Virus record (IMG/VR): IMGVR_UViG_3300032138_000006
Coordinates: 1-64,000 of that record
Reading direction: 5' to 3' (one strand)
DNA length: 64,000 nt
From: a virus
Taxonomy: Duplodnaviria; Caudoviricetes
Shown: in pieces, positions 35,485 through 38,049 of the stretch
Layout of the letters: each line of letters begins with the position of its first letter
Position numbering within the stretch: position 1 is the stretch's first letter
Notes under the pieces: generated by a model
Database searches by the model: none
Told to the model about the DNA's origin: nothing
Seen by the model: the letters and a program-made list of their open reading frames with translations, nothing else
Made by a program: the position numbers and the translations under genes

Positions 35485-35513
35485 TTGACAAAAGAAATAT
35501 ACTGTGCTACAGT
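35485..35513 (+). promoter_or_regulatory. sigma70 promoter
   Basis: TTGACA-17 nt-TACAGT with extended TG. Confidence 0.75.
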
Positions 35514-35571
35514 GTAAACTAGAAACTTGGAAGATTAGCTGAGTTTACTTTAACAACTAGGAGAAAAGCCA

Positions 35572-36345
35572 ATGGCTATTGATTTGAAGAAAATGCAGGA
35601 GAGAAAGTTCGCCCTCGATAATCGAGGTGGTTCAAGATCTCAAAAGAACGGGTTTTGGAAGCCACAGGATGGCGAGCAGACCATCCGAATTATTCCGACT
35701 GCGGATGGAGATCCGTTCAAGGATTATTGGTTCCACTATAATGTGGGCAAGAACTCTGGGTTTATGTGTCCGAAGAAGAACTACGGGGAGGACTGTCCTG
35801 TCTGCGATTTCGCAAGCCAGCTTTGGCGAGAGGACAACGAAGGAAGCAAGAAGATGGCAAAGTCCCTTTTTGCACGCCAGCGTTTCTTCTCTCCTGTAAT
35901 GGTTCGTGGGGAAGAGGCGCAAGGAGTGCGTGTCTGGGGCTACGGCAAGATGGCGTACGAAACGCTTCTTAATTTGGTACTCAATCCAGAGTATGGAGAT
36001 ATTACCGACACTGAGGCTGGTACAGACTTGGTTATGGTATACGGTAAGCCTCCGGGCGGTCAGTTCCCGCTGACAAAGCTCACCCCTAAGCGCTCAACTT
36101 CACAGTTCTGTGAGGATGTTACGCCGGAGCGATGCAAAGAGCTTCTGGATGGTATTCCAAACTTCGAAGACCTGTTTGATCGCAAGACTTCAGCAGAGGT
36201 GAAAGCCCTTTTGGATGAGTTCTTGCTTTCTGACGAGGATGCCGAATCAGCCTCAACAGAGACTGTTAAGTATGCCTCGTCAAACAAGACAACTTCAGAG
36301 GCAAATTCTGTTTCTGATGCGTTTGATGAATTGTTGGGCAGTTAG
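35572..36345 (+). CDS. Single-stranded DNA-binding protein (gp32-like)
   Basis: FWKP..G...IRIIP, HY, CP......CPVC zinc site, VWGYGK, DITD...G.D, acidic tail ending FDELL. Confidence 0.8.
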   Translation: MAIDLKKMQERKFALDNRGGSRSQKNGFWKPQDGEQTIRIIPTADGDPFKDYWFHYNVGKNSGFMCPKKNYGEDCPVCDFASQLWREDNEGSKKMAKSLFARQRFFSPVMVRGEEAQGVRVWGYGKMAYETLLNLVLNPEYGDITDTEAGTDLVMVYGKPPGGQFPLTKLTPKRSTSQFCEDVTPERCKELLDGIPNFEDLFDRKTSAEVKALLDEFLLSDEDAESASTETVKYASSNKTTSEANSVSDAFDELLGS

Positions 36346-36351
36346 TCCATT

Positions 36352-36384
36352 CCCACAGGGAGGCACAGGGTTATCAGGTGTCTT
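36352..36384 (+). repeat. 33-nt structured element, copy 1
   Basis: CCCACAGGGAGGCACAGGGTTATCAGGTGTCTT; 30/33 identical to 36857-36889. Confidence 0.85.
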
Positions 36385-36413
36385 GTTATTTTACTATAAA
36401 AAGGATTTAAACC

Positions 36414-36839
36414 ATGAGTAAAGCAGAAAACGGACAGAGCGTTAAGGTGCATTACAAGGGTACTCTGAGCGATGGCACGATATTTGACAGTTCGCGTGAT
36501 CGAGGAGAAACCTTGGATTTTGAGTTAGGGGGAGGCGATCTTCTTCCTGATTTTGAGGGTGCTGTTATCGGAATGGAGGTAGGCGAGGTGAAGTCGTTTA
36601 CTATTGCGGAGGGTTATGGCGCTCATCAACAAGATGCAGTGGTGCCAGTGCCAAGAGCAGCCTTTCCGGAAGATTTTGAGTTTACCATCGGGCAGACTGT
36701 TGGGGGTACTAGTGCCTCTGGTCAGCCCATCCGGGCAGTTGTTACAGAGGTTGGCGACGAACAAGTCACCTTGGACCACAACCACCCCTTGGCGGGTAAA
36801 GACCTCAATTTTGAAGTCGAGCTTGTAGAAGTTTCTTAA
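36414..36839 (+). CDS. FKBP-type peptidyl-prolyl isomerase (SlyD/FkpB-like)
   Basis: VKVHYKGTL.DG..FDSS, FE.AV.GM, YG, V.LD.NHPLAGKDL.FEVELV. Confidence 0.92.
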   Translation: MSKAENGQSVKVHYKGTLSDGTIFDSSRDRGETLDFELGGGDLLPDFEGAVIGMEVGEVKSFTIAEGYGAHQQDAVVPVPRAAFPEDFEFTIGQTVGGTSASGQPIRAVVTEVGDEQVTLDHNHPLAGKDLNFEVELVEVS

Positions 36840-36856
36840 GAACAACTCCTTCGATC

Positions 36857-36889
36857 CCCACAGGAAGGCACAGGGCTATCAGGTGCCTT
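36857..36889 (+). repeat. 33-nt structured element, copy 2
   Basis: CCCACAGGAAGGCACAGGGCTATCAGGTGCCTT. Confidence 0.85.
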
Positions 36890-36915
36890 AATTTATATTA
36901 ATGGGAGACAGAGAC

Positions 36916-38049
36916 ATGGCAAGACCAAAATCAGGAAAAACAAAAGTCGGCAAGTTGAGCATTGCCGATATGCGAGCGTTAATTAATAAGAAGGCTGGTA
37001 TCAATGTGGCTCACAATCTCGCAGAGGATAACCCGACAGAGGTCAATGATTGGATCCCAACCGGCTCTCGCTGGCTAGATAGTATTATTTGTCGTGGGCA
37101 GTTGGCGGGGATCCCGGTTGGAAAAATCTCTGAGATCGCTGGATTGGAATCCACGGGTAAGTCTTTTTTGGCAGCACAGGTCGCAGCCAACGCTCAGAAG
37201 AAGGGCATCGATGTAATTTATTTTGATTCCGAATCAGCCATCGATCCAGAGTTTCTGGCACGCGGAGGTTGTGATGTTGATCGCGTACTATATGTACAGG
37301 CTCAATCAGTAGAGTTTGTTTTGGAGACCATTGAAGATCTCTTGGAGACAAATGAAAACCGAATGCTTTTTATTTGGGATTCATTGGCACTCACTCCATC
37401 TACAACAGATGTTGAGGGGGACTTCAACCCCTTGTCTTCCATGGCAGTAAAGCCGAGGATTTTATCAAAGGGGATGTCAAAGCTCACTGTGCCGATTGCG
37501 AACAGCCAATCAACATTTCTGGTTCTTAATCAGCTTAAGACTAATATCACTAGCAATATTGCAGAAGCTATGACGACGCCATACTTCACCCCCGGTGGAA
37601 AGGCGATGCACTATGCGTATTCGCTCCGCATCTGGCTTACAGGGCGCAAGGCTAAGAATGCATTTGTTATGGATGATCGTGGTTTCCGCATTGGTTCAGA
37701 GGTCAAAGCTAAGATTCAGAAATCTCGCTTTGGAACACAAGGTCGCCAGAGTGCATTTAAAATTCTTTGGGGTGAAGAGGTTGGAGTTCAAGACGAGGAA
37801 AGTTGGCTGGACGCAATCAAGGGCTCTGATAATTTAAAGAATGCCGGTGCTTGGTTCCAGTTGGTATATGAAGATGGCTCGGTTGATAAATTTCAAACGG
37901 CTCATTGGATGGACAAGCTACAAGATGAGAAATTTAAAAGCCGAGTGTTACAAATTATGGATGAAGAGGTTATCCTAAAGTTTGATAAGCGACTGGGCGA
38001 AGCGTCAGATTTTTATGGCGACGATGAGGAGACGGAAGATGAAAAATAA
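36916..38049 (+). CDS. recA: RecA/UvsX recombinase
   Basis: IPTGS..LD, GIPVGKISEIAGLESTGKS, YFDSE.AID, IWDSL, LNQL, TPGGKA; GGAG SD before ATG 36916. Confidence 0.9.
   Translation: MARPKSGKTKVGKLSIADMRALINKKAGINVAHNLAEDNPTEVNDWIPTGSRWLDSIICRGQLAGIPVGKISEIAGLESTGKSFLAAQVAANAQKKGIDVIYFDSESAIDPEFLARGGCDVDRVLYVQAQSVEFVLETIEDLLETNENRMLFIWDSLALTPSTTDVEGDFNPLSSMAVKPRILSKGMSKLTVPIANSQSTFLVLNQLKTNITSNIAEAMTTPYFTPGGKAMHYAYSLRIWLTGRKAKNAFVMDDRGFRIGSEVKAKIQKSRFGTQGRQSAFKILWGEEVGVQDEESWLDAIKGSDNLKNAGAWFQLVYEDGSVDKFQTAHWMDKLQDEKFKSRVLQIMDEEVILKFDKRLGEASDFYGDDEETEDEK

Follow-up and report, generated by a model that had tools for sequence, protein, structure and literature searches.

A candidate new H-type pseudoknot RNA family downstream of single-stranded-DNA-binding protein genes in uncultured phages

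The source record is a 93-kb IMG/VR virus contig, estimated to be 51% complete, and the window analysed here is its first 64 kb. It derives from a myovirus-type phage, with genes for terminase, portal, major head and sheath proteins and for a DnaB-like helicase. On the + strand, a gp32-like single-stranded-DNA-binding protein (SSB) gene is followed by a first copy of a 33-nt element, a gene for an FKBP-type peptidyl-prolyl isomerase, a second copy of the element and a gene for a RecA-like recombinase. The SSB gene (35572–36345) encodes 257 amino acids and matches Pfam PF08804 (gp32, E = 5e-14), and the FKBP gene (36414–36839) encodes 141 amino acids and matches PF00254 (E = 1.6e-19). The open reading frame of the RecA-like protein (36901–38049; PF00154, E = 1.3e-35) probably begins translation at the in-frame ATG at 36916, because GGGAGA lies 7 nt upstream of that codon and the proteins of relatives begin with MARPKSGK.

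Ahead of the SSB gene, a sigma70-type promoter-like site on the + strand (35485–35513; TTGACA, 17 nt, TACAGT with TG; 10 of 12 matches) probably marks, to judge by its sequence, the start of an SSB-FKBP-recA transcript. The same TTGACA/-10 arrangement is kept in relatives (TTGACA-17-TAnnnT), and a scan of the + strand from SSB to recA in the window detected no promoter-like site. The SSB 5' leader contains a hairpin of 8 pairs (35523–35546, + strand) with the loop AAGAUUAG, which is followed by ACUUUAAC and the ribosome-binding site. Compensatory changes were seen at 8 of its 8 predicted pairs among 23 relatives. This leader hairpin is an element distinct from the pseudoknot described below.

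Copy 1 of the 33-nt element occupies 36352–36384 on the + strand, starting 6 nt past the SSB stop codon (36345), and copy 2 occupies 36857–36889 on the same strand, starting 17 nt past the FKBP stop codon (36839) and ahead of the RecA gene. Both belong to subtype A of the family defined here (covariance model 53.6 bits, E = 1.6e-11, and 57.5 bits, E = 1.8e-12, respectively), and the covariance models find only these two copies in the whole 93-kb contig. In copy 1, helix S1 pairs 36352–36354 with 36368–36370 and helix S2 pairs 36360–36366 with 36378–36384; in copy 2, the corresponding segments are 36857–36859 with 36873–36875 and 36865–36871 with 36883–36889. With up to 3 mismatches allowed, the window contains 2 matches to the element, against 0.00 expected from 100 shuffles. 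The copies differ at 3 of 33 positions: G or A at position 9, opposite U33 (G-U to A-U); U or C at position 30, opposite G12 (G-U to G-C); and U or C at position 20, in the loop. The initial annotation, which drew attention to this locus, had located both copies exactly, and its description of a stem joining positions 9–15 to 27–33, of CAGG occurring three times, and of two pair-keeping stem differences and one loop difference agrees with what is seen in the sequence. The single-sequence folding energy of the two copies is not significant (z = -0.06 and -0.81). Because this energy is ordinary, the case for structure rests on comparative data, which are strong.

The same annotation had proposed a structured RNA-type motif that it did not recognise, and the Infernal/Rfam check, which has now been run, returned nothing credible. 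No match at gathering score was found in the 64-kb window with Rfam 15, and a permissive search of 36300–36950 yielded matches at chance level only (E >= 0.75). One of these, DUF2815, overlaps the element (16.5 bits against a gathering score of 41.2, E = 3.6) and owes its score to the ribosome-binding region; the other two are internal to the FKBP gene. In IMG/VR, exact matches to a 23-nt core with two free positions are present in at least 119 contigs, and a structure-aware scan recovered 262 instances from 172 sources, representing 88 unique sequences. Two further subtypes (C and D) were found beyond that set, giving four subtypes, A to D, in all. Many of the contigs are near-duplicates, and unique sequences or unique contexts are counted wherever numbers are given. 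Loci were also gathered with the SSB protein as the sole criterion (from 597 confirmed relatives, 80 were kept; 61–92% amino acid identity), and in most of them the element or a close variant lies directly past the SSB stop codon. Searches of cultured phages by DNA and by the SSB and RecA proteins revealed neither a close relative nor any copy of the element. In a scan of prokaryote genomes, true matches occurred only on phage-like contigs in metagenome-assembled genomes of inconsistent taxa, alongside chance matches, and bacterial genomes yielded no repeat array that matched. A published catalogue of 10,006 candidate viral RNAs has candidates upstream of GP32 genes, not downstream (PMC10690425). 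The element family, absent from Rfam 15, is a real H-type pseudoknot RNA family of phage replication-module junctions; measured against that release, it is a well-supported candidate new RNA family of 36 nt, with covariation in both helices and members on hundreds of uncultured phage contigs.

Comparison across the family shows each copy to be a compact H-type pseudoknot of ~36 nt that is read on the + (mRNA) strand. Its consensus runs N7-C8-C9-R10-C-A-G-G, S2a (7 nt), R22-G23-G24-X25, then, past the loop, A-(U)-C-A-G, S2b (7 nt) and A. Helix S2 is a 7-bp stem, and helix S1 consists of 3–5 bp between the bases 5' of RCAGG and the first loop bases. Pairing in S2 holds in 99–100% of cells (99.8%), and changes on both sides are found at 4 of its 7 pairs (G-C/A-U/C-G; A-U/G-C; A-U/C-G; C-G/U-A). 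One S2 pair is G-U in 30 of 71 sequences; these wobbles fit the + strand alone, because the same position would be a C-A mismatch on the opposite strand. The first structure scan required pairing, so the count was repeated on elements defined by their 5' half alone, and all 7 S2 pairs are formed in 85 of these 86 unique elements. The structure-preserving character that had been ascribed to the stem differences between the two copies thus extends to the relatives.

The pairing of the 5' CCC with the loop GGG, which the initial annotation had raised as a possible short pseudoknot, is borne out by the covariation of S1. Of 88 unique sequences, 81 can form its outer pair, N7–X25, where 48.9 would be expected, and every one of the four Watson-Crick types is seen (permutation p < 5e-5, a value to be read with the subtypes being partly lineages and raw shuffle controls overstating significance). 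The pairs at which several independent types of compensation are seen stand without such controls. At the middle pair (8–24), the alignment of unique sequences has C-G in 37, G-C in 21 and no unpaired case. Subtype C was found by a scan for G24 loop variants in which the 5' flank was left free; it comprises 40 genuine elements (21 unique sequences) with G24 changed to C, and C8 is changed to G in every one of them. Subtype D extends S1 to 5 bp (GCCCA/UGGGU, GCUCA/UGAGU, GCCGA/UCGGU, ACCGC/GCGGU, CCCGC/GCGGG) and includes a change at the 9–23 pair, which is invariant elsewhere. Every S1 pair therefore covaries somewhere in the family (C-G to G-C, C-G to A-U). A scan for G23 loop-base variants, restricted to the commonest stem, found none. 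Loop 3 tolerates insertions of up to ~50 nt. In 85 of 88 sequences, R10 and R22 are the same base, A/A or G/G, a match that could reflect a non-canonical pair at the helix junction or simply two lineages. Almost no variation is seen in the unpaired RCAGG, in the CAG preceding S2b or in the stem's central G-G-C, which suggests either a tight tertiary fold with loop-helix contacts or a conserved partner.

Among 187 unique contexts, the gap between stop codon and element is 5–15 nt in ~90% and 6–9 nt in ~70%. The next start codon lies 12–36 nt past the element in ~80–84% of contexts, and ~80% of copies are 17–36 nt upstream of it. The other ~20% are followed by an intrinsic terminator (often with a sigma70-type promoter), by tRNA genes, by a second element 12–15 nt away or by a longer spacer. 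Genomes contain 1–4 copies, and relatives that are complete or more than 90% complete (147–204 kb) contain 1–2, as do the complete genomes among them (165–204 kb). The proposed link to the SSB gene holds, as SSB is the upstream gene in 150 of 256 cases, the others including an Hc1 histone-like protein (56) and FKBP (11). The downstream genes include those for RecA (67), an Hc1-like protein (55), an unknown protein (44), a small unknown protein (18) and FKBP (15). A tie to recA in particular, which had also been suggested, is not supported by the comparison: the element also precedes terminators, tRNA genes, DNA polymerase genes and further genes and occurs at a second locus ~41 kb away. This second locus, seen in three relatives of the same clade, carries subtype C after a gene for a MoxR-like AAA ATPase, ~41 kb from the SSB locus.

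Subtype C is also found after genes for a 206-aa phrog_4652 protein, a ~450-aa unknown protein and a 212-aa protein; HMM searches with the 212-aa, 206-aa and ~450-aa proteins returned only the unnamed phrog_4652. The gene for the 212-aa protein is situated between helicase/exonuclease genes and a DNA polymerase gene. An AlphaFold model of this protein (pLDDT 80.8) has a disordered C-terminal tail, and its best Foldseek match is the OB-fold ssDNA-binding protein PrgE (E = 5.5e-5, probability 1.0, TM 0.43/0.62). On the strength of this model, the 212-aa protein is probably a second, unrelated OB-fold SSB. When loci were sampled by the 212-aa protein family alone, the pseudoknot was present just downstream in 20–25 of 80. 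Since it is found after both gp32-like and 212-aa OB-fold genes, the element is linked to two unrelated SSB families, the second a probable one, and it is more conserved than the proteins encoded around it.

FKBP is a cassette gene with a pseudoknot on either side. In L124, the closest FKBP-less relative examined (SSB 89% identical in amino acid sequence), the order is SSB-element-RecA, with one copy. Two relatives (L123 and L089) share the window's order, SSB-element-FKBP-element-RecA; two others (L122 and L116) carry an extra gene and three elements, whose subtypes run A, B, A, and further relatives have up to four elements between SSB and RecA. The number of elements rises with the number of open reading frames between SSB and recA, without being strictly one per gene. 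The suggested check of FKBP-less relatives for a single copy thus comes out positive for L124. The idea that the element was duplicated when FKBP was inserted is nevertheless unsupported or too simple, given the many cassette genes that are punctuated in this way, the age of the FKBP alleles and flanking copies of differing subtypes. FKBP alleles are 46–74% identical in amino acid sequence among relatives; in DNA identity to relatives, the element stands at 91–100%, SSB and recA at 82–84% and FKBP at 63–70%. From this divergence FKBP appears to be an old, variable resident, and the pattern fits cassettes being exchanged recurrently through recombination at the elements, not one duplication when FKBP was inserted. 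In the SSB protein tree, a quick version of which starred branches only should be trusted, the element is present throughout, including a clade on a branch of 1.06 changes per site that has the identical subtype-A sequence, and at least 5–10 losses or replacements of the element are required. One well-supported gp32 clade has subtype B with a U-run alternating with ordinary intrinsic terminators. In Microcystis phage Mel-JY01, SSB and recA are 8 nt apart.

Several familiar identities do not fit the element. An intrinsic terminator would have a GC-rich stem, a U-tract directly behind it and a loop of 3–8 nt, as opposed to the 9–11 nt or more found here, and a run of at least four U residues lies within 12 nt of the stem in just 36% of contexts. 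A CsrA/RsmA site, for which a binding assay had been suggested, is not sustained either: such a site has a conserved GGA in a hairpin loop, whereas the sole GGA here spans loop 1 and the stem, and this motif is lost whenever the stem covaries, as in GGGGCAC and CAGGCAC. The T4 RegB/S1 cleavage site is a single-stranded GGAGRAYARAA (PMC1702504). In the element, the GGAG lies in a stem, is followed by GCAC and is not conserved. A promoter reading fails on the spacing of -10-like hexamers, which is inconsistent between copies, and no + strand promoter was called there.

The best explanation, which we hold tentatively, is that the element is a post-transcriptional boundary or 3'-end element. The pseudoknot would be transcribed from the sigma70-type SSB promoter within the SSB-FKBP-recA message and would act post-transcriptionally where the SSB cistron, and likewise each cassette cistron, has its 3' end, being placed as near to the stop codon as a terminating ribosome permits. 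The G-poor A-N-W-U-U tract after the stem would fit the cutting preference of RNase E, with a U-run in its place in some relatives. Once the transcript had been cut or terminated, the upstream SSB message, for which demand is high, would have the pseudoknot as a protective cap, and its level would be uncoupled from that of the downstream replication and recombination genes. As the best-conserved local DNA, the element would also offer a crossover point for the swapping of cassettes such as FKBP. If the element does set boundaries or stability in this manner, it would bear on how large phages set very different amounts of SSB and of its operon partners, and it would account for accessory genes such as FKBP being slotted in and swapped.

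In favour of a boundary role, the element lies close to the stop codon, close relatives have an ordinary intrinsic terminator at the same spot, and the identical element is kept before a terminator plus promoter or before a tRNA gene, where it cannot serve a downstream coding gene. The 3' flank reads A (93%), N, W (84%), U (64%), U (73%). RNWUU, the consensus for RNase E, is in register in 42% of contexts as opposed to at most 16% at any other offset, although the RNase set of the host may differ. The RNase E consensus has been given as RN↓WUU (PMC5222698), and in T4 no message is more stable than the gene 32 mRNA, which has a conserved site for RNase E next to its stop codon (PMC3014915). With the leader having its own conserved 5' hairpin, the SSB message would be structured at both ends. 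Some observations count against the boundary model. A plain GC hairpin would be enough as a 3' cap. The model alone gives no reason for the strong conservation of the loops, nor for the pseudoknot being kept in some phages together with a canonical terminator 5–11 nt later. The RNWUU match, present in less than half of contexts, may come partly from A/U-rich spacers and the U-tract, and the position of ~80% of copies 17–36 nt before a start codon fits an operator equally well.

Such an operator, responsive to SSB and acting on translation, is the main rival to the boundary model and is possible, if on balance doubtful. Free SSB, or another phage RNA-binding protein, would nucleate at the pseudoknot and spread over the A/U-rich spacer, blocking the ribosome-binding site of the next gene (FKBP, recA, Hc1-like or DNA polymerase) and extending the logic of T4 gene 32 to the neighbouring genes. 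The gp32 protein of T4 first recognises a pseudoknot in the RNA, after which it covers an A/U-rich leader that is unstructured (PMC3014915). The occurrence of the element after SSB genes of two unrelated families, gp32-like and 212-aa OB-fold, the G-poor spacer of 12–36 nt that separates ~80–84% of copies from a start codon and the SSB leader hairpin, which is followed by a similar tract, ACUUUAAC, all point the same way. Yet the core is near-identical across very divergent gp32 proteins (the branch of 1.06) and across unrelated SSBs, so that there is no co-evolution with the supposed partner; subtypes A and B swap between sister phages; and in the deepest gp32 clade and elsewhere it is a terminator plus promoter or tRNA genes, not a ribosome-binding site, that come next. 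In a more specific version, which we regard as somewhat unlikely, the pseudoknot would be a shared sensor of free SSB for unrelated SSB families, coupling translation of recA, DNA polymerase, the histone-like protein and FKBP to uncoated SSB; if true, the T4 gene 32 circuit, which involves one gene, would be broadened here into a post-transcriptional 'SSB regulon'. It is unlikely that the element is a conditional transcription signal, either a weak or regulated intrinsic terminator or a nut/put-like modifier of RNA polymerase for terminator read-through. The U-run (four or more U residues) within 12 nt of the stem in 36% of contexts, the alternation of subtype B and its directly following U6–7 with classic terminators among close relatives and the copies located just upstream of a strong terminator would all suit such a signal, but intrinsic termination is poorly served by a loop of 9–11 nt or more and by the common gap of 3–4 nt ahead of the U-run. 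A U-run is, moreover, absent from most copies, many copies are 5–8 nt from the next Shine-Dalgarno sequence, and the terminator scan of the window flags copy 2 by a different 5-bp stem only and leaves copy 1 unflagged.

A ligand-sensing or host-factor-binding RNA, that is, a tiny riboswitch-like aptamer or a decoy for a host protein (a nuclease or defence component) made abundant via the SSB message, seems quite improbable. In its ~10 bp, its ~14 invariant unpaired bases and the site in loop 3 where insertions vary, the element is similar to small pseudoknot aptamers, tandem copies occur, and the retention of the sequence across unrelated phage groups would suggest a host-side or small-molecule partner. 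Against this, Rfam contains no matching riboswitch, the downstream genes are functionally mixed with no expression platform evident, no ToxN-like or other defence-type gene is nearby, and the matches in bacterial genomes are to phage-like contigs only, with no repeat array. Were the element nonetheless a binding site for SSB or a host factor, it would represent a regulatory circuit in an abundant uncultured phage lineage. Function at the DNA level alone, as a recombination or insertion hotspot or as a single-strand DNA replication signal without a role in RNA, is very improbable. Swapped cassettes do have copies at their borders, no DNA in the vicinity is better conserved than these copies, and G-T pairs are tolerated in folded single-stranded DNA too; however, the element is perfect in single-copy genomes, and the two-helix compensation, the coding-strand wobbles, the fixed orientation with transcription and the strict stop-to-start placement all indicate the transcript. 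Scarcely credible is a stimulator of recoding, through which ribosomes would read past the SSB stop codon or shift frame near it. The 6–9 nt gap from the stop codon (~70% of contexts) equals that of known read-through and frameshift pseudoknots, but all three stop codons are used, there is no conserved slippery heptamer, and the spacing varies modulo 3, so that any peptide added by extension differs (for the window, it would have 17 codons after SSB and lie in a different frame at copy 2).

To our knowledge, the T4 gene 32 operator is the only known SSB-linked pseudoknot, and it sits at the other side of the gene. Like the element described here, the operator of T4, T2 and RB69 is a small pseudoknot of the H type carried by the mRNA for a gp32-family SSB (PMC3014915, PMC535899). 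The unstructured A/U-rich tract that comes after the operator has a counterpart in ~80% of the copies, ahead of the ribosome-binding site of the next gene; in the other ~20%, terminators, tRNAs or further copies come next. In contrast to the operator, the element is 3' of the SSB stop codon and not in the 5' leader, which has a different hairpin; its sequence and helix lengths are unrelated to those of the operator, and it is also found after non-SSB genes and after genes of the unrelated SSB family.

Intercistronic and 3' mRNA stabilisers and retroregulators, such as REP hairpins, terminator hairpins and lambda sib, are plain hairpins with free loop sequence. The element resembles them as a structure just past a stop codon that could set upstream stability and the ratio of expression within an operon, and it swaps position with intrinsic terminators in relatives, but it is a pseudoknot with invariant loops and is present in 1–4 copies per genome. 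The PeSL cassettes of T4-like phages, which consist of an early promoter and a terminator stem-loop, are scattered through hyperplastic regions (PMC4122927). They too are short conserved repeats that flank variable genes and mark points of homologous exchange and modular shuffling; the element differs in being a pseudoknot, in having no adjoining + strand promoter and in being confined to replication-module junctions.

ToxI-type (type III) antitoxin RNAs are head-to-tail pseudoknot repeats upstream of a ToxN-family toxin gene, and they share with the element a pseudoknot unit of ~36 nt that may be present in more than one copy in phage DNA. We rejected this identity, given that the copies are parted by genes or by spacers of 12–15 nt and that no ToxN match, nor a PADLOC match of such a kind, was obtained for the proteins encoded nearby. 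Luteovirus frameshift pseudoknots and the exonuclease-resistant RNAs of plant viruses belong to eukaryotic RNA viruses and act on ribosomes in mid-ORF or on Xrn1. These compact viral H-type pseudoknots, which have loop-helix triples, are likewise ~30–45 nt long, with a short S1, conservation of loop bases and central stem pairs that do not vary; the element differs in occurring in DNA phages, past stop codons. By analogy, the likeness would be consistent with a mechanically robust fold at gene junctions, and a conceivable alternative role for the element would be that of a phage counterpart of the exonuclease-resistant viral RNAs, blocking host RNases. Being so small, the element would lend itself readily to structure probing, crystallography and reporter assays.

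In relatives, the pseudoknot occupies a second conserved locus, approximately 41 kb from the SSB locus, where it is preceded by a gene for a MoxR-like AAA ATPase. At this locus (positions 177285-177331, 115427-115465 and 18730-18776 of contig C1 in the related genomes G006, G009 and G010, respectively), the pseudoknot belongs to subtype C, in which helix S1 is flipped to G-C. The 93-kb contig that includes the window lacks a homologue of the MoxR-like ATPase gene. Subtype C or D pseudoknots were also identified in another phage group (L270:9706-10394; also L281-L351), located 3' of a gene for a 212-aa OB-fold protein in about one-quarter to one-third of 80 sampled loci. This gene is flanked by exonuclease and DNA polymerase genes, and the model of its product, which has a disordered tail, best matches the ssDNA-binding protein PrgE.

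Structural variants of the pseudoknot also occur, with loop 3 insertions of 6 to ~50 nt (L225:438-533, L225:807-862 and L204:1154-1212). All these variants retain both helices and the terminal A-U-A-G, and the largest insertion is able to fold into a hairpin of its own. Tandem pseudoknots, spaced by 12-15 nt and sometimes differing in subtype within a pair, are present in L030 (580-666), L056 (11113-11208) and L079 (2800-2893).

The cassette gene most commonly found between the SSB gene and the next conserved gene of the relatives encodes a histone H1-like Hc1 protein of ~60-66 aa (L057:1240-1437 and 55 similar loci; PF07432, E = 3e-20). In several relatives (L015, L026, L031, L032 and L053), tRNA genes, with Thr, Glu and Met anticodons as read by eye, begin 7-40 nt past the pseudoknot, and the sole pseudoknot copy of a complete 204-kb genome lies in such a tRNA-gene context.

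A phage-like SSB-pseudoknot-RecA block is also present in the 2.85-Mb chromosome of a MAG, 'candidate division WOR-3' (CP070664.1; locus L207, 1174-6533). Its RecA is only 277 aa long, being truncated where genes of opposite orientation adjoin it. This block could be a prophage remnant, a hint of the host or an assembly chimera.

Upstream of the SSB gene of the window, we identified a predicted sigma70-type promoter (TTGACA, 17 nt, TACAGT; within 35485-35571) and a conserved 5' leader hairpin (35523-35546), which shows compensatory changes at all eight of its pairs among relatives. Downstream of the hairpin lie a conserved ACUUUAAC and the ribosome-binding site. This region is probably an autoregulatory or stabilising leader of SSB, and may be among the candidates described in PMC10690425 as 'upstream of GP32'.

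The true start of RecA is likelier to be the in-frame ATG at 36916 than the listed ATG at 36901, because the former is preceded, at a distance of 7 nt, by a GGGAGA Shine-Dalgarno sequence and yields a product that agrees with the MARPKSGK start seen in relatives.
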